Shown piece after piece: positions 16,976 through 51,165 of a DNA stretch of 64,000 nucleotides. Every line of letters begins with the position of its first letter. Position 1 is the first letter of the stretch. The notes beneath the pieces are model-generated. The model was not told where the DNA came from. It worked only from the letters and a program-made list of their open reading frames with translations, and ran no database searches. The stretch is from positions 27,301-91,300 of the forward strand of contig JABDAM010000003.1 in NCBI GenBank assembly GCA_013289145.1, given 5' to 3'. Origin of the DNA: Alphaproteobacteria bacterium. GTDB taxonomy: Bacteria > Pseudomonadota > Alphaproteobacteria > UBA11073. Made by a program: the position numbers and the translations under genes.

Positions 16976-17344
16976 TTATAGCTTGCTCGGCGGGTAGTCC
17001 TGCATCAGCTCCCGGATTCTGCCGCGCAAAGGCAAAAGAACGTCAATAGCGAAATTCCACGCCATCTGCACATTGATATGAAAATATTCATGAATAAATT
17101 CATTGCGCGTATCCACCAAATCAAGCCATGGAATATCAGAAGCAATTTGATCGATTTGATGGTTGCGGAGCAAATGCCGGCTAGCTTCGCCGATGACTTC
17201 GATGGTTTTAATAAAGGCCAGCCGACGTTCGATGCTATTTTCAATTTCTTGCCGTCCGTCGCGGGTCAGCATTTCCAGCCAGCTTAATGCTGCGTCGACG
17301 TCAAACAACCAGTTGAATATTTGCCGCTGCGATGATTTTTTCAT
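16976..17344 (-). CDS. hepT: HepT-type HEPN toxin (DUF86)
   Basis: 122 aa with the Rx4HxY motif (RNEFIHEY) and IEVIGEA. It overlaps the upstream MNT gene by 4 nt. Confidence 0.8.
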   Translation of the reverse strand: MKKSSQRQIFNWLFDVDAALSWLEMLTRDGRQEIENSIERRLAFIKTIEVIGEASRHLLRNHQIDQIASDIPWLDLVDTRNEFIHEYFHINVQMAWNFAIDVLLPLRGRIRELMQDYPPSKL

Positions 17345-18682: not shown

Positions 18683-19105
18683 TTAATTCCGTTTGTTGAG
18701 TTGTTGAACTTTTTGTTTGAGAAGCTGATAGCCTGCATTTAGCAGGGTTGAATAGTCTTTCTCAATATGTTGGCTAATTTTTTCTAAATCAGGCGGGGAG
18801 TATTCATGTGCTAGCGTATTTCGGTCACTGTGCATTTCAAACCAGCCTTCGCTTTTAGGAAGAAGGCCATTTGTCATGCCAATTTCCAAAGTCTCTTTGG
18901 GGAAATTGCTTTTAGGTTCGTCCAGGTAAGCAATAATAAGCCTAGTCAACTGCCGTGTCATTTCATAGGCAAGACGAAAGCGGCTGGCTAATGCTTCGCG
19001 GTATAATTTGTTTTCGCGTTCTGCTTCAATCGCATTCAAATCCTGAATGGCGGCTGTCAGGTCTGTGAAAACTTCATTAATCAGTTCAAGGCGTTCAGCG
19101 GACAT
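18683..19105 (-). CDS. HEPN nucleotidyltransferase-substrate-binding protein (HI0074-like), putative toxin
   Basis: Rx4HxY motif RNTLAHEY. The ATG at 19105 is preceded by GGGAGAG; the ORF track's TTG start is at 19129. It overlaps the MNT gene upstream. Confidence 0.75.
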   Translation of the reverse strand: MSAERLELINEVFTDLTAAIQDLNAIEAERENKLYREALASRFRLAYEMTRQLTRLIIAYLDEPKSNFPKETLEIGMTNGLLPKSEGWFEMHSDRNTLAHEYSPPDLEKISQHIEKDYSTLLNAGYQLLKQKVQQLNKRN

Positions 19106-19427
19106 AAAGCGCTCTCCCTTCTTTTTCAATTATTTTTCTTAAAGCTGGGCGCGCGTGCGCCAGATTAACGCAGTCGATTTTCGCCAGCTTATCTGACGCA
19201 TTCACAATATCCGTCAGTTTCCGCCATATGACGTGATCTGCGGTTGAATCCATTTCAAAGGCCAAATCCACATCCGAAAATTTATGAATTTTTCCAGTTG
19301 CATAGGAGCCAAATAAAACAATTTTCATAATTTGCGGAAAAACCAGTGCTAGATTACGCACAATCTCCCGCAGCCAGGGCTCAAGCCCTTCGTCGTTAAT
19401 CGTAATGGTGCGGGTTTCGGTGAGCAT
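19095..19427 (-). CDS. Nucleotidyltransferase (HI0073/MNT-like), putative antitoxin
   Basis: 110 aa with the motif LFGSYATGKIHKFSDVDLAFE. Confidence 0.75.
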   Translation of the reverse strand: MLTETRTITINDEGLEPWLREIVRNLALVFPQIMKIVLFGSYATGKIHKFSDVDLAFEMDSTADHVIWRKLTDIVNASDKLAKIDCVNLAHARPALRKIIEKEGRALYVR

Positions 19428-28605: not shown

Positions 28606-29124
28606 ATGGCAAAAGCCGCTAAAAAGGATTTGAAAACAGCTAAAACTTCGGCTGATGCGCGCTCCGCGCGCCGGGCCAATACCCGCGAACGGGCGGAGCG
28701 GGCAACGCGCAAGATGGCGGCGCGGGAGCCGGTGGTTGAAACGCAGTCGCTGCGGCCGACGCGGGATATAGAGGGTTTGCAGAAAATCGCGCGTTTGATG
28801 AGCGGGCTGTCGCTGCGCGCGGCCAATGCTTATGCGGATGCGCGGATGGGCGAAGGCGACAAATATGTCCGCATCGCCGCCGCCGGATATCGTGAAGCCA
28901 TGGGAATTTTCGATGAAATTATTAAGGCCAATCGCGTCTTGAAGGAAGCCGAGCGCGAGCATTTAATAACAGTCATGAATGGCATCAAATTACTGCACGT
29001 GCGCATCCAGGATTATAACGTCGCCTGCAAGGATGAAGCATGGCGCCGCGAACACCAGGAAGAATGGAACCCGCACCCGCTGGGCGAGGATAAGCAGGGG
29101 TTTTTTGCGAAGGAACGGTTTTAG
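28606..29124 (+). CDS. Hypothetical protein (basic N-terminus)
   Basis: 172 aa with AGAGGA upstream of the ATG. The stop codon abuts the octamer-array repeat. Confidence 0.55.
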   Translation: MAKAAKKDLKTAKTSADARSARRANTRERAERATRKMAAREPVVETQSLRPTRDIEGLQKIARLMSGLSLRAANAYADARMGEGDKYVRIAAAGYREAMGIFDEIIKANRVLKEAEREHLITVMNGIKLLHVRIQDYNVACKDEAWRREHQEEWNPHPLGEDKQGFFAKERF

Positions 29125-29240
29125 TAGACGAGCGGACGAGCAGACGAGCGGACGAGAATAAAAAATTTCGTATGAGAGATTCATTTCATACATAAACCGC
29201 CAGAAAATCTCGTCTACGCGTCCGCTCGTCCGCTCGTCTG
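29125..29240. repeat. Inverted octamer-array element (copy A, intergenic/3'-terminal)
   Basis: The left arm is tagacgag-cggacgag-cagacgag-cggacgag (29125..29156). The right arm is ctcgtcta-cgcgtccg-ctcgtccg-ctcgtctg (29209..29240). The spacer is 52 bp. Confidence 0.85.
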
Positions 29241-30146
29241 CTGGATCGCCTCATCCAGTTTGTGATCCTCAATCCCCGCCGGTTCCTGGTGCAAAATGAT
29301 TTGCGCGGTGGGGTAGCGGCGGCGCAGGGCGTCTTCGAGCATTTCGGTGATGTGGTGGGCGTCGTGCAATGTCAGGTCGCCGGGCATTTCGACGTGGGCG
29401 TCGATGAAAACGTCGGGGCCAGACTGGCGCGTGCGGAGGTCGTGCATGCCGGAGACGCCGTGGTGCGCCAGGATGATTTCGGAAATGATGTGGCGGTCTT
29501 CGTCTTTCATTTCCTTGTCCATCAATTGCTCTGCCGCGCCGCGCGCGAGCTTCCAGGCGGAGAATAAAATATAAAATGAAATCAGCATCGACGCCGCGCC
29601 GTCGAACCGGTCAAAGCCCATGCCGGATATCAGTAGGGAAATAATCACGACGATGTTGACCAGCATATCGTTCATGTAATGCAGAAAATCCGCCTTGATC
29701 GACATGCTGTGCGTGCGGTCGACGACGCGGTGCTGGTAGATCAGCAATGCTAAAATCAGCACACTGGAAATAACCATGATGGTGATGCCGATAGGGGTCG
29801 ATTCCACCGGCTCGGGGGAGAGCAGGCGGGAAAAGGATTGAATTAGAAAATAAATTCCAGATCCCGCGACGAATGCCGCCTGCCCCAGGGTGACGAGCGG
29901 TTCAGCCTTGCCATGGCCCCAGCGGTGGTTTTTATCCGGCGCGCGGTGCGCGACGCGCAGGGCGTAAAAAGCCGTCGCGGCGGCGATGGCATCGCCGACG
30001 GATTCCAGCATGGATGCCAGCATCACGAGCGCATTGGTCTGAAAATAGGCGTACAATTGCAGTGCAATAATCGTCAGGCCCACGGCCAGGCTGACCAGGG
30101 CGGCTTTTTGGGTTTGGTGTCCGCGTTCGCGGTGGGAGAGGGACAT
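29214..30146 (-). CDS. Cation diffusion facilitator (CDF) family metal efflux transporter
   Basis: 310 aa with six TM helices and a C-terminal cytoplasmic domain (CzcD/FieF-like). The last residues QQTSGRADA and the stop codon are encoded by the repeat arm. Confidence 0.85.
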   Translation of the reverse strand: MSLSHRERGHQTQKAALVSLAVGLTIIALQLYAYFQTNALVMLASMLESVGDAIAAATAFYALRVAHRAPDKNHRWGHGKAEPLVTLGQAAFVAGSGIYFLIQSFSRLLSPEPVESTPIGITIMVISSVLILALLIYQHRVVDRTHSMSIKADFLHYMNDMLVNIVVIISLLISGMGFDRFDGAASMLISFYILFSAWKLARGAAEQLMDKEMKDEDRHIISEIILAHHGVSGMHDLRTRQSGPDVFIDAHVEMPGDLTLHDAHHITEMLEDALRRRYPTAQIILHQEPAGIEDHKLDEAIQQTSGRADA

Positions 30147-37417: not shown

Positions 37418-37987
37418 TTATCGTGCAGCAGGTGCGGCAGGCGCAGCAGGTGTTGAACCGGCAGGCATTTTGCTGTTGTTTGCAGGCGCGCTAGCAGGCA
37501 TTGGAGCCGTTGCAGGCGTTGTTGCGTTAGGCGCAGAGGCTACCGTAGGTGCCGGTGTCGCAGCAGGCGCAGGCTCAGCATTCGGTGCGGAAGCCATTGC
37601 AGGCGCAGACGGCGCGTTTGGAGCGGTTGGCGCAGACGTGTTGTTGTTAGATGCGGCAGTCATCGCGTTATTGCTGGCAGGAGACGCAGCAGATGCAGCG
37701 GTCGTGCTGGACGGCGTGTTAGGGCCAGTGGTCGTCAGCGTGTTTTGCTTTTCGATGCTGGTCAAAGTCGTAGCGCCGATGCCGGGAACGTTTTTCAAGT
37801 CGCTAGCCGATTGGAAAGGGCCGTGTTGATTGCGGTAAGCAACGATTGCTTGCGCTTTTGCAGGGCCGATGCCGTTCAGCTGTTGCAGCTGTTCAGGTGT
37901 CGCCGTGTTGATATTAACCGTAGCAGCCATAGCTGCGCCCGCGGTCAGCATTACTGCTGCAACCAGGGCAAGTGCGAATTTACGCAT
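37418..37987 (-). CDS. comEA: ComEA-like helix-hairpin-helix DNA-binding protein with a long A/P/S/N-rich tail
   Basis: A signal peptide is followed by VNINTATPEQLQQLNGIGPAKAQAIVAYRNQHGPFQSASDLKNVPGIGATTL (a tandem HhH). The C-terminal ~110 aa are low complexity. Confidence 0.8.
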   Translation of the reverse strand: MRKFALALVAAVMLTAGAAMAATVNINTATPEQLQQLNGIGPAKAQAIVAYRNQHGPFQSASDLKNVPGIGATTLTSIEKQNTLTTTGPNTPSSTTAASAASPASNNAMTAASNNNTSAPTAPNAPSAPAMASAPNAEPAPAATPAPTVASAPNATTPATAPMPASAPANNSKMPAGSTPAAPAAPAAR

Positions 37988-41430: not shown

Positions 41431-41505
41431 GCCGGCTTAGCACAGTGGTAGTGCAGCGGTTTTGTAAACCGAAGGTCGCGGGTTCAAATCCTGCAGCCGG
41501 CACCA
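41431..41505 (+). tRNA. tRNA-Thr (anticodon TGT)
   Basis: I folded the cloverleaf by hand. The acceptor gccggct pairs with agccggc, the D-arm is gcac/gtgc, the anticodon stem is gcggt/accga with loop ttTGTaa, the T-arm is gcggg-ttcaaat-cctgc, and CCA is encoded. Confidence 0.9.
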
Positions 41506-43018: not shown

Positions 43019-44434
43019 ATGGCGATTGATATTCTAATGCCCGCTTTATCGCCTACGATGACCGAGGGCAAAATCGCCCGTTGGTTGGTGAAGGAGGGCG
43101 ACGCGATTAAATCCGGCAAAGTCCTATGCGAAATCGAAACCGATAAAGCCACGATGGAAGTTGAGGCGGTGGATGAGGGTACGCTGTTAAAAATCGTCGT
43201 GCCGGAAGGCGCGGAAGGTGTTGCGGTGAATAGTGTGATCGCGGCGCTGGGCGCGAAGGGCGAAGTATACGAGCAGACGAGCAGACGAGCAGACGAGCAG
43301 ACGAGAAAAAGTACTGATGCCGTCGCGAATGCCCCTGTTATTGATCCGGGGTGTATTCCTGGAATGTCGCCCGCCAACCAAACGCAACAAATCTCGTCTG
43401 CTCGTCTGCTCGTCTGCTCGTCTGCTGATGAGGAAAAATTCTATTCTGGCGGCACGAAAACCATGACCGTGCGCGAAGCGCTCCGCGAAGCCATGTCCGA
43501 AGAAATGCGCCGCGACCCGACCGTGTTTTTAATGGGTGAAGAAGTCGCGGAATATAACGGCGCGTACAAAGTGTCGCAGGGCATGCTGGATGAATTCGGC
43601 CCAGAGCGCGTGATTGATACGCCGATTACCGAAATGGGTTTCGCGGGTCTGGGCGTTGGTGCGGCGTTTGGCGGCCTGAAACCCATTGTTGAATTTATGA
43701 CAATGAACTTTTCGATGCAGGCGATTGACCACATCGTGAATTCCGCCGCCAAGACATTATATATGTCCGGCGGCCAGATGGGTTGCCCGATTGTTTTTCG
43801 TGGTCCCAACGGCGCGGCGGCGCGCGTGGGTGCGCAGCACAGCCAATGTTTCGCGTCCTGGTACGCGCATATTCCAGGCCTGTATGTGCTGGCGCCGTGG
43901 AACGCGGCGGACGCGAAAGGCCTGATGAAGGCCGCGATCCGCAATCCAAACCCCGTCGTGTTTTTGGAAAACGAAATCATGTATGGCCAGTCGTTCGAAG
44001 TGCCGGTGCATGATGATTTCGTCCTGCCCATCGGCCGCGCGAAAATTGAACGCGCGGGCAAGGATGTCACCATCGTCGCTTACGCCATCATGGTGGGCAA
44101 GGCGTTGCAGGCGGCGGAAGAATTATGGAAACTCGGCATCGATGCGGAGGTGATTAACCTGCGCTCCATACGTCCGCTCGACGTTGAAACCATCGCCGCG
44201 AGTGTGCGCAAAACCAACCGCCTGGTGAGCGTTGAAGAAAGCTGGCCGTTTGCCGGCATCGGCTCCGAAATGGCGGCCTTGATGATGGAGCATTGTTTTG
44301 ATGATCTCGACGCGCCGATTGCGCGCGTATGTCATAAGGATGTGCCGTTGCCCTATGCCGCGAACCTGGAAAAACTCGCCTTGCCGCAGATTGAAGATAT
44401 CGTCGCGGCCGCGCGGGGAGTTTGCAACCGATGA
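43019..44434 (+). CDS. pdhB: Pyruvate dehydrogenase E1 beta subunit with an N-terminal lipoyl domain
   Basis: A lipoyl domain ([14 protein letters not shown]) is followed by a linker and then the E1-beta core ([15 protein letters not shown]...). The linker is encoded by the octamer-array repeat. Confidence 0.95.
43267..43427. repeat. Inverted octamer-array element (copy B, in frame inside pdhB)
   Basis: Four perfect cagacgag units (43274..43305) face four perfect ctcgtctg units (43393..43424) across an 87-bp spacer. This is a 32-bp perfect inverted repeat. Confidence 0.9.
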
Positions 44435-45756
44435 GCATCGAAATTTTAATGCCCGCCCTGTCGCCGACGATGACGGAGGGGAAACTCGCGCGCTGGCTGG
44501 TAAAGGAAGGCGACGAAATTAAATCCGGAAAAGTTTTGTGCGAAATTGAAACCGACAAAGCGACCATGGAAGTTGAGGCGGTGGATGAGGGGACATTATT
44601 AAAAATCGTCGTGCCGGAAGGCAGTGAAGGCGTTGCGGTGAATTCAGTGATTGCGGCATTGGGCAAGGCTGGAGAAAAGTACGAAGCTAAGCAGACGAGC
44701 GGACGAGCAGACGAGCAGACGAGCAAGCCTGCAGCTGCATTAACACCACTTTCAAATATTTCCGCCCAATCATCGCAAGCACTATCACAAGATTTCGTCT
44801 ACTCGTCTGCTCGTCTGCTCGTCACTAACCAAGGCCGCATCGCTGCGTCACCCGTCGCAAAACGCATCGCGCAGGAACGCGGCGTGAATTTATACGCCGT
44901 CATCGGTACGGGCCCGAACGGGCGGATTGTGAAGGAAGACGTGTTGAACGCGGTTCAGCAGACGAGCAGACGAGCAGACGAGCAGACCAGTGCAACAAAA
45001 TTGCCTACGCCAGCGCAAGCGATTCCTGCCGCTGCCGCAGGGCCGAACGCGAAACAACTCGCAGATTTGCTTGGCCAGAAATATACCGAAGTTAAAAATT
45101 CGCCCGTCCGCAAAATCATCGCCAAACGCCTGACGGAATCCAAACAAACAGTGCCGCATTTTTATCTGACGGTGGATTGTGAACTCGATGCGCTCCTGGC
45201 CGCGCGCAAAGCGTTGAATGAAAAAGAAAACGCCAAGATTTCCGTCAACGACGCGATCATCAAGGCGGTCGCCCTGGCACTGCGCGAAGTGCCCGCCGCC
45301 AACGCCGCCTGGACGGAAGAGGCGATTTTGAAATATACCGATGTGGATATTTCTGTGGCGGTCGCCACGGCGGACGGTTTGGTCACGCCGATTATAAAAG
45401 GCGCGGACGGCAAAAGCCTGGTGCAAATCTCAACCGAAATGCGCGACTTGGCCGCCCGCGCGCGCGACAATAAATTAAAACCCACCGAATTCCAGGGCGG
45501 CGGATTTACGATTTCCAACCTCGGCATGTTCGGCATCAAAAATTTCGCGGCCATCATCAACCCGCCGCAGGGTTGCATCCTGGCCGTCGGTGCTGGCGTG
45601 AAAAGCGCGGTGGTAAAGGATGATAAACTTGCGATTGCAACGGTGATGAACGTGACGCTATCAGTCGATCACCGCGTGGTGGACGGCGCCGTGGGCGCGG
45701 AATTTTTGGCGGCGTTTAAGAAATTGATTGAAGCACCGTCAGTGTGGGTTAAATAA
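44431..45756 (+). CDS. pdhC: Pyruvate dehydrogenase E2 (dihydrolipoamide acetyltransferase)
   Basis: The ATG overlaps the pdhB TGA (ATGA). It has a lipoyl domain, a PSBD ([16 protein letters not shown]) and a catalytic domain ([10 protein letters not shown]). Confidence 0.95.
44692..44823. repeat. Inverted octamer-array element (copy C, in frame inside pdhC linker 1)
   Basis: The left arm is cagacgag-cggacgag-cagacgag-cagacgag (44692..44723). The right arm is ttcgtcta-ctcgtctg-ctcgtctg-ctcgtc (44794..44823). Confidence 0.9.
44959..44990 (+). repeat. Solo octamer array (copy D, in frame inside pdhC linker 2)
   Basis: Three perfect cagacgag units plus cagaccag. No inverted partner lies nearby. 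Confidence 0.8.
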
Positions 45757-50091: not shown

Positions 50092-50595
50092 CTACGATTG
50101 CGCCGGGCTGAATTTTAATAAGCAATTCAGAGCCGTTTCAACAACCTGTTGACGGACATCGTTGCGCTCGCCTGGGAAGTGTTTTTCTATGATTTTAATG
50201 TTGGGGCTGCTTCCCGCTTTGCGACGCGCCACGGAAATATAAACCAGTCCATCTTTATCCGGTGATACGCCGGACGGGCCGGCGTAGCCTGTGACTGCGA
50301 CGCCAACGGCAATATCGGGCATGGATTTTAACAGTCCCAAAACCATAGCTTCCGCGCATTGGCTGCTTACGGCTGTATATTGTTCCAAAATATCCGACGG
50401 TACGCCTAGGAATTGTTTTTTCGCTTCATCACAATAAACCACATGCCCGCCATGCAATACGTTCGAAGCGCCCGGAATATCCGCAATTGTCGCGCTGATT
50501 AATCCTGCCGTCAGGGATTCTGCCGTGCCGATTTTTTCTCCGGCGGAAGTGTAACGCTTTACAATTTCGGCTGCTTTTTCGTTCGTTGATGTCAT
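50092..50595 (-). CDS. CinA C-terminal-domain protein (PncC-like nicotinamide-nucleotide amidohydrolase), copy 1
   Basis: TAESLTAGLISATIADIPGAS...TGYAGP. The start is set at MTSTNEKAAEIV; the ORF track extends to 50658. Confidence 0.8.
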   Translation of the reverse strand: MTSTNEKAAEIVKRYTSAGEKIGTAESLTAGLISATIADIPGASNVLHGGHVVYCDEAKKQFLGVPSDILEQYTAVSSQCAEAMVLGLLKSMPDIAVGVAVTGYAGPSGVSPDKDGLVYISVARRKAGSSPNIKIIEKHFPGERNDVRQQVVETALNCLLKFSPAQS

Positions 50596-50676
50596 TATAA
50601 ATAATGCCTGAGCTCGATAATTAACCGGACTATATCCAATTTGGACGACCGAATGCAAGAATTTTAACAGAACAGC

Positions 50677-51165
50677 CTATAAAAAACTTAATAGCTTATT
50701 CATTGCGGCATCGGCGGCGAGGTGCTGCACCGCTTCGCGGTCGCCGCCAAAGAAATGTTGGGTGACTGCGGGTTCGCCATCGCGTCGTGCGGCGGCAATA
50801 TAAAGCAGCCCGACAGGTTTGGCGGGCGTTCCGCCCGACGGGCCCGCAATGCCGGTGATTGCAACCGCGGTTTGTACGGTGGGCGGGCAGGCGGCGAGGA
50901 GGCCGCGTACCATCGCCTCGGCACATTCAGCGCTGACGGCGCCATGGGTTTCAAGGACCGTGGCGGGCACGGCCAGCAAATCCATTTTTGATTGATTGGA
51001 ATAGGTGATTAGGCCGCGCTCCAAAACCGCTGAAGCGCCGGGTATGGCGGTGACCAGGGAACACACCAGCCCGCCCGTGCAGGATTCCGCGACAGCAATC
51101 ATCTCCCCGCGTGAGGTGAATTGATCGACGATGGCTTGCGCTTTGGCTTTCAGGTTGGGGAGCAT
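50677..51165 (-). CDS. CinA C-terminal-domain protein (PncC-like), copy 2
   Basis: VAESCTGGLVCSLVTAIPGAS...TGIAGP, 162 aa. Confidence 0.8.
   Translation of the reverse strand: MLPNLKAKAQAIVDQFTSRGEMIAVAESCTGGLVCSLVTAIPGASAVLERGLITYSNQSKMDLLAVPATVLETHGAVSAECAEAMVRGLLAACPPTVQTAVAITGIAGPSGGTPAKPVGLLYIAAARRDGEPAVTQHFFGGDREAVQHLAADAAMNKLLSFL

Follow-up and report, generated by a model that had tools for sequence, protein, structure and literature searches.

Foldback (FB) transposons have long terminal inverted repeats that are built from short tandem sub-repeats and enclose variable centres; these eukaryotic elements move as units and generate target-site duplications, and their centres are derived from the element. 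The short tandemly repeated repetitive (STRR) heptamers of heterocystous cyanobacteria reportedly lengthen helix P12 in the RNase P RNA gene, an observation attributed to Vioque in 1997, so that complementary arrays extend a stem in a functional gene. In Rickettsia, selfish palindromic repeats, the Rickettsia palindromic elements (RPEs), are found in frame in protein-coding genes (PMC10969869). Repetitive extragenic palindromic (REP) sequences of the CGTC type are characteristic of Alphaproteobacteria, and no transposase is known for them (PMC3733652), and arrays of the heptamer GGGNATC in Xanthomonas and Nostoc preferably contain four units and lie within ~50 bp of stop or start codons (PMC4692102). 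Intragenic invertons of the recoding and premature-stop types have also been described (bioRxiv 10.1101/2023.03.11.532203). Here we compare with these systems a pair of inverted octamer arrays in pdhC, the gene for the E2 dihydrolipoamide acetyltransferase (PdhC) of pyruvate dehydrogenase (PDH), in a 64-kb stretch of the alphaproteobacterial contig JABDAM010000003.1 (the window; features are given on its plus strand unless stated otherwise). We consider it probable, at roughly 0.6, that this feature is one copy of a lineage-restricted, hairpin-forming family of dispersed repeats. Sequence comparison shows that the repeated entity is the arm alone, and that the DNA between the arms is the gene's own linker.

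The pdhC gene (44431–45756) was recognized from its translation, from Pfam and from a homologue search, in which the named homologues of PdhC are alphaproteobacterial. Pfam places a lipoyl domain at residues 4–77, an E3-binding domain at residues 138–172 and a catalytic domain at residues 216–438. Both arms of the element are in frame in linker 1, between the lipoyl and E3-binding domains. The left arm (44690–44725, residues ~87–99) consists of AG followed by the octamers CAGACGAG, CGGACGAG, CAGACGAG and CAGACGAG (44692–44723). The right arm (44794–44825, residues ~122–131) is a reverse-complement array of TTCGTCTA, CTCGTCTG, CTCGTCTG and CTCGTCAC, with its octamers at 44794–44823 and CTCGTC as the last of them within these bounds. 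The gap between the two octamer blocks is 70 nt (44724–44793); the spacer between the arms (44726–44793) is a native linker of Ala/Pro/Ser/Gln type that is not repeat-derived, as indicated by alignment with armless linkers, and it has no fold of its own. Tandem Repeats Finder delimits period-8 arrays at 44690–44725 (4.5 copies) and 44795–44823 (3.6 copies). An inverted-repeat finder pairs 44694–44722 with 44795–44823 (29 nt, 93% complementary) and also detects a perfect 22-nt complementary register (44702–44723 with 44802–44823). As RNA, the element folds at −59.2 kcal/mol (z = −7.7). The octamer sequences, the 70-nt spacer and the in-frame position between the lipoyl and E3-binding domains, all of which had been proposed in an earlier note on this DNA, are borne out by the sequence, its translation and Pfam.

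The window contains seven arrays, which form three convergent pairs (in pdhC, in pdhB and at a junction of convergent genes near 29.2 kb) and one solo. A two-unit pattern with at most two mismatches matches the window 20 times, compared with 0.02 times in dinucleotide shuffles, and all of these matches fall in four places: 29123–29242, 43264–43426 in pdhB, linker 1 of pdhC, and 44957–44990 in pdhC. A looser 24-mer scan of the window recovered the identical seven arrays and nothing more, and found none in shuffled sequence. The single octamer occurs 0 times outside the arrays in the window, which rules out a dispersed motif resembling Chi or an uptake sequence.

In pdhB (43019–44434), whose product has an N-terminal lipoyl domain (residues 5–77) and a transketolase-like domain that starts at residue 148 (Pfam), the arms correspond to residues 85–96 and 125–136, upstream of the transketolase-like domain. 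The left arm (43272–43306, 35 nt) has four perfect units with native TACGAG just upstream, and the right arm (43392–43426, 35 nt) is 100% complementary to it; as RNA, this element folds at −91 kcal/mol (z = −11.5). As the earlier note had it, the pdhC element has the architecture of the pdhB copy, only the arms are common to the copies, and the left arm starts right after the lipoyl domain in both proteins, following GEVYE in PdhB and GEKYEAK in PdhC, with a two-codon offset. The 29-kb pair was previously called intergenic; it touches both of the neighbouring convergent open reading frames (ORFs). The first bases of its left arm (29123–29157) overlap the TAG stop codon (29122–29124) of ORF 28606–29124, and the minus strand of its right arm (29208–29242) encodes the C-terminal tail QQTSGRADA of a cation-efflux (CDF) transporter (29214–30146); this tail, nine residues and a stop, lies beyond the transporter's last Pfam domain. 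As RNA, the 29-kb element folds at −67.9 kcal/mol (z = −11.3). The solo array (44957–44990, residues ~176–187), which the earlier note did not list, consists of AG, three copies of CAGACGAG and one of CAGACCAG, and lies in linker 2 of pdhC, which joins the E3-binding domain to the catalytic one. Since its orientation is opposite to that of the pdhC right arm, inverted arrays also enclose the E3-binding domain. Of the seven arrays in the window, four are wholly inside ORFs, and a fifth encodes the C-terminal tail of one.

The spacers of the three window pairs are mutually unrelated, because each is its gene's own local DNA, outside any element. Two close relatives with armless pdh genes (L120 and L122) were recovered as DNA; there are no arrays in the 35 kb obtained from them. 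Their PdhB linkers, which contain NVPVIDPGCTPGM and GAPIVDPGCAPGM, respectively, align at both the protein and the nucleotide level with the 13-residue core of the pdhB spacer (43307–43391), which is thus the native PdhB linker core, and this core is also found in five further armless PdhB homologues. In pdhC, arms are present at the same positions in two relatives, L118 (P0004) and L119 (P0009), which are array-positive at ~80% PdhC identity. The spacer that both carry (...LPPVQQQ) can be aligned with the linkers of armless proteins (...APPMQR and ...AQPLIQQ), again at the protein and DNA levels. With centres that are native and common to armless relatives, the pairs are therefore not contiguous insertions of the MITE (miniature inverted-repeat transposable element) or RPE kind. 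The comparison with bacterial interspersed mosaic elements (BIMEs) and REPs, which had been drawn from the conserved arms and unrelated spacers, or one with MITEs, holds for the arms but not for the spacers, which are native linker shared with armless orthologues. Nor does the region behave as an ordinary fixed linker, the alternative that the earlier note had set against its proposal: close relatives are armless, and copies are found elsewhere in the window and in other genomes.

The module, AG plus four octamers (34–35 nt), is the same in every window arm, including the non-coding ones, and in both arms of a pair from another alphaproteobacterial chromosome (L018). Convergent pairs bracket 50–85 nt of locus-specific DNA, and solos also exist. 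Convergent orientation, GACGAG at the left and CTCGTC at the right, is common to all seven pairs examined, of which four (L018, L029, L054 and L066) come from an orientation-neutral genome scan; the paired pattern used on metagenomes detects convergent pairs only. No target-site duplications or flanking direct repeats are visible at any junction examined. Linker 1 of PdhC has 43–50 residues in armed and 39–45 in armless proteins, linker 2 has 31–33 residues with an array and 27–38 without, and the PdhB linker has 52 residues armed compared with 41–50 armless. Each arm encodes ~11 residues (~23 per PdhB pair), yet the armed linkers are barely longer; thus, the arms largely replace native residues. 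The array unit has no G-tracts and is not palindromic, and the arms have no internal dyad symmetry. A G-quadruplex reading is ruled out by the lack of G-tracts in the unit. The possibility that the arms extend the stems of pre-existing hairpins is also ruled out in this lineage, where the spacers alone fold like shuffled sequences (z between −0.6 and +1.6); an enclosed terminator hairpin is found only in the Gemmatimonadota copy, L066.

Among the known systems, the octamer element comes closest in its workings to the palindromic repeats that are read in frame in Rickettsia. It shares with RPEs an alphaproteobacterial host, a palindromic structure, in-frame read-through in housekeeping or metabolic genes at positions compatible with function, and no transposase nearby (PMC10969869). 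However, RPEs are contiguous elements of ~100–150 bp with a conserved centre and a family-specific peptide, whereas only the 35-nt arms are shared here and the centre is native. The octamer pairs read through in frame without stops, yet there is no whole-element homology, hardly any gain in length and no target-site duplication. REPs, BIMEs and REP doublets forming hairpins (REPINs) resemble the octamer family in their pairing and gene-end location: they occur mostly as inverted (head-to-head) pairs, downstream of genes or between convergent genes and occasionally within genes. The octamer also contains CGTC on one strand. Inverted pairs are present at three of the four window loci and at L018 and L029, but most of the window arrays lie within ORFs. 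The REP unit, in contrast, is itself a hairpin (8–9-bp stem, 4–5-nt loop, terminal tag and CCA tail), while the arms here are direct tandem octamers without self-complementarity, and thus not palindromic units with a GTAG or CGTC tag; no REP-associated tyrosine transposase (RAYT) was found in the 64-kb window.

The likeness to STRRs and GGGNATC arrays lies in dispersed arrays of 7–8-nt units with a preference for four units and a location near gene ends: the 64 kb hold seven four-unit arrays, located at a stop codon, in a C-terminal tail and in linkers, and the arrays L018 and L090 are next to starts. The unit and the taxon are different here, there is no G-quadruplex potential, and the arrays occupy in-frame coding linkers and form convergent pairs around native DNA. 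FB transposons are similar in architecture only; unit movement, target-site duplications and element-derived centres are not seen here. Invertons likewise have inverted repeats around native gene sequence, inversion has occurred between related strains in the octamer family, and recoding or premature-stop outcomes would be possible. In contrast to invertons, there is no recombinase in the window, no recombinase-type core in the arms and no flipping observed in this lineage.

The copies differ in age. The pdhB arms are complementary at 35/35 positions and were found in 0 of 119 other listed PdhB homologues; being perfect and confined to this genome, they are therefore recent. The pdhC arms are degenerate and common to two relatives, L118 and L119, and the linker-2 array is also present in L118 and has decayed to QQTSRPADQQTS in a further relative, L139; thus, both are older. 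In a neighbour-joining tree of the PdhC domains, with linkers excluded, the window groups with the armless P0002, P0003, P0005 and P0006 (98% bootstrap), and L118/L119 group with P0011–P0013 (90% bootstrap). The armed pdhC state is therefore polyphyletic, and from these sequences could reflect two gains, several losses or recombination. The left junction follows YEAK in the window and YE in L118/L119, which would mildly favour separate arm-gain events. The L118 and L119 arms have lost most of their complementarity. No compensatory changes were found in the arms, and the left-arm changes of L119 are unmatched on the right.

Relative L139, whose PdhB is 86% identical to that of the window, provides a contrast case that shows what a contiguous insertion at the same site looks like. 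A different, ~129-nt palindromic element is present in frame in its pdhB linker and in its pdhC linker 1 (L139 633–761 and 2398–2526), with 49-nt arms starting CTCCCCCTTGAGGGGGGAGG and a 31-nt loop. The copies match at 92% identity from end to end, including the loop, and the pdhB copy displaces the native VIDPGCxPGM core. This element, with homology over its whole length, behaves like a MITE or RPE. PDH linkers thus repeatedly accept palindromic DNA: within the clade, the same pair of linkers is home to two repeat families, unrelated to each other, in different genomes.

Sequence databases were scanned for the array pattern genome-wide (at least 117 loci) and for the paired pattern in metagenomes (four loci). 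The 1.9-Mb alphaproteobacterial chromosome OZ251979.1, with a PdhC 63% identical to that of the window, has arrays at L018, L029 and L085. In L018, a perfect pair of 4+4 units fills the dnaK-dnaJ intergenic region, from 12 nt past the dnaK stop to 3 nt before the dnaJ ATG; both L018 and L090 arrays adjoin start codons. In L085 (3267–3349), the left partner of a CTCGTCTG array is homogenised to 3.5 copies of GAGCTGAG, which matches CAGACGAG at five of eight positions; thus, arms evolve in concert. Convergent arrays of GACGAG type also occur in 2-oxoacid dehydrogenase operons in metagenome-assembled genomes (MAGs) of another phylum. One pair (L054 7666–7737; MAG unclassified) lies between pdhA and pdhB, and the other (L066 2415–2494; Gemmatimonadota) lies just after the E2 gene, around a GC-rich terminator hairpin. 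L054 has, in addition, a ~69-nt tandem repeat between lipA and pdhA.

Most matches among the at least 117 loci of the genome scan are simple arrays in unrelated taxa, of arbitrary length (~20 units in L128, for example). When a synthetic peptide was used to look for translated arrays, the matches were for the most part spurious small ORFs that cover simple arrays in many unrelated organisms, one eukaryote among them; cross-phylum occurrences therefore need not be homologous. A viral pattern scan gave six sporadic arrays only, a BLAST search of plasmids and phages with the array gave no match, to which low-complexity masking may contribute, and a literature search with the array sequence as a string gave no relevant match. 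Rfam 15 detected only a tRNA in the window and no RNA family at the arrays. Bacteroidales, Prevotella and Prolixibacteraceae MAGs (L014, L017, L030, L048, L060, L088, L105 and L106) have many intergenic (C/T)GGAC(G/A)AG arrays, frequently placed right behind stop codons; one such array in L105 borders a second octamer family, GGGTGAGC. A viral contig (L133 1–179) opens with a long (T/C)GGACGAG array that folds onto a complementary array across a CTTCGG loop, which could be a terminal hairpin or an assembly end effect.

One site shows both orientations of an enclosed segment. In L124 (7578–7760), L125 (6935–7110) and L126 (4750–4930), all from the same GltX-metallophosphoesterase intergenic site in strains ~96% identical, an 85-nt core lies between inverted GACGAG/GACAAG arrays. 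This core is exactly inverted in L125 relative to L124 and L126, and the arms have 2 versus 5–6 units. Arrays of this octamer in inverted orientation are therefore able to mediate both inversion and a change in unit number. Both orientations were seen only in these strains, which are probably Bacteroidota; the evidence comes from what is probably another phylum, and for the window lineage it serves as an analogy.

In the account that we favour, the modules arise at the DNA level and were not selected as protein sequence. The octamer array is free of stops in all six frames, encoding a cyclic QTSRRADE on one strand and LVCSSARL on the other. In an AlphaFold model of PdhC built on 19 homologues, residues 88–135 and 179–204, the two linkers, have a predicted local distance difference test score (pLDDT) below 50 and no secondary structure. 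Disordered swinging-arm linkers tolerate almost any hydrophilic or neutral sequence. The arrays are tolerated in pdhC and pdhB because they are stop-free in six frames, keep the downstream frame and lie in such disordered linkers. Each pair would turn its linker or intergenic stretch into a hairpin with a 22–35-bp stem in single-stranded DNA or mRNA, and would be a substrate for inversion and unit-number change. We propose that the first arm would be acquired by short-tract copying from another array via microhomology, such as that offered by native TACGAG or CAGAC, and that the second would be made as the reverse complement of the first by template switching during replication. Such a two-step model would account for the replacement of native DNA, the equal unit number, the perfect young pairs and the solos. 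The net effect on the host is inferred to be that of neutral to mildly deleterious passenger DNA.

Several observations weigh against this account. The GACGAG-strand arrays inside ORFs (43274, 44692 and 44959 on the plus strand, 29242 on the minus strand) share one codon phase in four of four cases (CAG-ACG-AGC...), which would occur by chance about once in 27, and the two in-frame right arms are also in one common codon phase. Between the window and L118, the arms are 87–89% identical compared with ~50–65% for the spacer, a level above neutral that would be possible for a functional sequence rather than a passenger. Between L118 and L119, the linker-1 element including its spacer (pdhC ~241–360) is 92–100% identical, compared with a gene mean of ~85% and ~50% for linker 2; recent exchange or constraint would each be possible sources of this identity. 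Template switching normally needs a nucleating hairpin, and the spacers are unstructured on their own. No gene for a mobile element (transposase, recombinase, reverse transcriptase or RAYT) was detected by Pfam among the 64 ORFs of the 64-kb window. The sample contains about ten paired loci, with the genome scan at no fewer than 117 loci. Moreover, the octamer consensus is unchanged across deep divergence, which points to a sequence-specific agent or constraint outside the account given above; together with the above-neutral conservation of the arms, it leaves room for a function or a sequence-specific machine. We give some weight, though a clearly minor one, to a sequence-specific process (an enzyme, a templating RNA or an array-seeded template-switch pathway) that installs modules of four CAGACGAG units as convergent pairs around pre-existing DNA and overwrites the flanks, which would be a new mode of spread. 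If this is true, the module-installing process creates hairpin and inversion modules in essential genes, possibly register-dependent, frame-restoring switches of PDH linkers.

Explanations in which the element or its arms moved as part of a longer piece of DNA fare poorly. Transposition of a contiguous palindrome with its own centre into the linker, in the manner of a MITE or RPE, would fit a palindromic, in-frame element in an alphaproteobacterial metabolic gene, as known from Rickettsia (PMC10969869), and L139 has such a contiguous element in the same linkers. We consider it very unlikely for the array pairs, whose centres are the native sequence of armless orthologues and unrelated between copies, and which show almost no net length gain and no target-site duplications at the junctions examined. 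The earlier note had suggested that the element spread with a lipoyl-domain duplication or gene conversion, in which case the arms would have travelled between pdhC and pdhB, in one direction or the other, along with the lipoyl domain. The left arms do begin at nearly one point after two similar lipoyl domains, and the pdhB left junction, GGCGAAGTATACGAG followed directly by CAGACGAG, is identical to the pdhC junction of L119. The lipoyl-coding DNA of the window's pdhB and pdhC is 80% identical (63% at third positions), slightly more than that of orthologues in different genomes (76–77%, and ~50% at third positions), which may hint at old concerted evolution but at no recent tract. Had a conversion tract brought the lipoyl domain along, the flanks would be identical and the CGG variant unit of pdhC would have been copied, and neither is seen: the pdhB arms are perfect beside flanks that are only 80% identical, and the CGG unit is missing from pdhB. 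In addition, the native pdhB spacer leaves no continuous tract across the element, and the pdhB arms occur in no other listed PdhB homologue, while the pdhC arms are shared with relatives. The suggestion is thus unsupported, and we regard it as highly improbable. The similar position of the arms in PdhB and PdhC is better explained by linker tolerance; microhomology may also be involved, with native TACGAG or CAGAC abutting the arrays.

Other explanations assign the arrays a role in place or dispense with spread altogether. A programmed or recombination-driven inversion switch, in which the enclosed segment flips as in an intragenic inverton, recoding or truncating PdhB and PdhC and switching intergenic signals, is possible but unsupported, and we judge it improbable. 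Shared inverted repeats around locus-specific DNA are a hallmark of invertons, and the exact 85-nt inversion between related strains involves the same octamer family. Flips in a shifted register, possible because each arm is a row of tandem octamers, restore the downstream frame and read the inverted spacer in another frame: four of five pdhB registers give stop-free, full-length ORFs, and so does the best pdhC register (22-nt perfect arms; flip of 44724–44801, 78 nt). However, the fully in-register pdhB flip creates a stop codon, the flipped linkers would be hydrophobic, and open antisense frames are about as many as chance predicts. The arms lack a dyad-symmetric recombinase core, the 64-kb window has no recombinase gene, the L118/L119 arms are without most of their complementarity, and the inversion evidence is from a probably different phylum. 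An exact look-up of the predicted flipped PdhB and PdhC products found none on record, which is uninformative, as each gene is known from a single contig. We see a small but appreciable chance that the arrays are a selected nucleic-acid signal, either an mRNA stem (a site for RNase III, a pause in translation once the lipoyl domain has been made, or, between genes, a stabiliser or terminator at the 3' end) or an 8-bp-spaced array of binding sites for a DNA-binding protein. Four-unit octamer arrays recall the tandem 8-bp metboxes of MetJ (AGACGTCT). The stems are very stable (−59 to −91 kcal/mol), the arms are conserved above neutral, and the element is the most conserved stretch of the L118/L119 gene. 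The 29-kb and dnaK-dnaJ copies abut stop or start codons, in another phylum (L054 and L066) 2-oxoacid dehydrogenase genes have similar arrays next to them, and the fixed number of four units recalls the preference of the Xanthomonas and Nostoc heptamer repeats (PMC4692102). A signal is nevertheless difficult to reconcile with close relatives that are armless in the same genes, host loci that are functionally unrelated, a unit that is neither palindromic nor G-tract-bearing, and the absence of compensatory changes and of an Rfam match; in an essential coding region, a 35-bp stem would more plausibly be burdensome. An ordinary low-complexity linker or microsatellite, expanded in place at unrelated loci, could draw on native linkers that hold QT(S)-encoding, CAGACNAGC-like seeds, and long simple arrays of the octamer do occur sporadically in unrelated genomes, including a bacterium of 72% GC and a eukaryote. 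It is barely plausible here, where one 34–35-nt module recurs at four places in 64 kb in both orientations, with exact convergent pairs at three of the four; the fixed unit number is unlike that of slippage-driven arrays, and stepwise 8-nt expansion inside an essential ORF would shift the frame. Finally, the source contig is metagenome-assembled and repeats can mislead assemblers, but we attach practically no weight to an artefact of assembly or sequencing: the reading frames are intact, as is the order of the domains, typical final k-mers are longer than the arms, and diverged orthologous pdhC arms are present in two independent metagenomes (L118 from ENA/JGI/NCBI and L119 from JGI).

The window has several further features that are separate from the arrays. 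HepT-like genes flank the gene for the ribonucleotide reductase small subunit, two cinA paralogues lie in tandem, a ComEA-like helix-hairpin-helix gene contains 9-nt tandem repeats, and a tRNA gene is located between aconitase and pdhA (jointly at 16976–17344, 18683–19129, 50092–51165, 37423–37699 and 41431–41502).

The octamer family belongs to the dispersed hairpin-forming bacterial repeats that are able to reside in frame in genes, and its arms-only architecture with a native centre is unusual among bacterial repeats. Read-through repeats in essential genes are rare outside Rickettsia, and the swinging-arm linkers of PDH are recurrent landing pads for them. Arms that enclose native sequence with almost no gain in length are not accounted for by a contiguous element moving through cut-and-paste or copy-and-paste. 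They point to a process of replacement type, for example template switching or short-tract conversion, by which long inverted repeats are built on the spot. For annotation, QTSRRADE and SSARLLVC peptides and spurious small ORFs are to be expected at such arrays. If the process is general, it bears on the de novo origin of REP-like pairs, on the acquisition of repeats by invertible segments and on the structural burden of coding mRNA.

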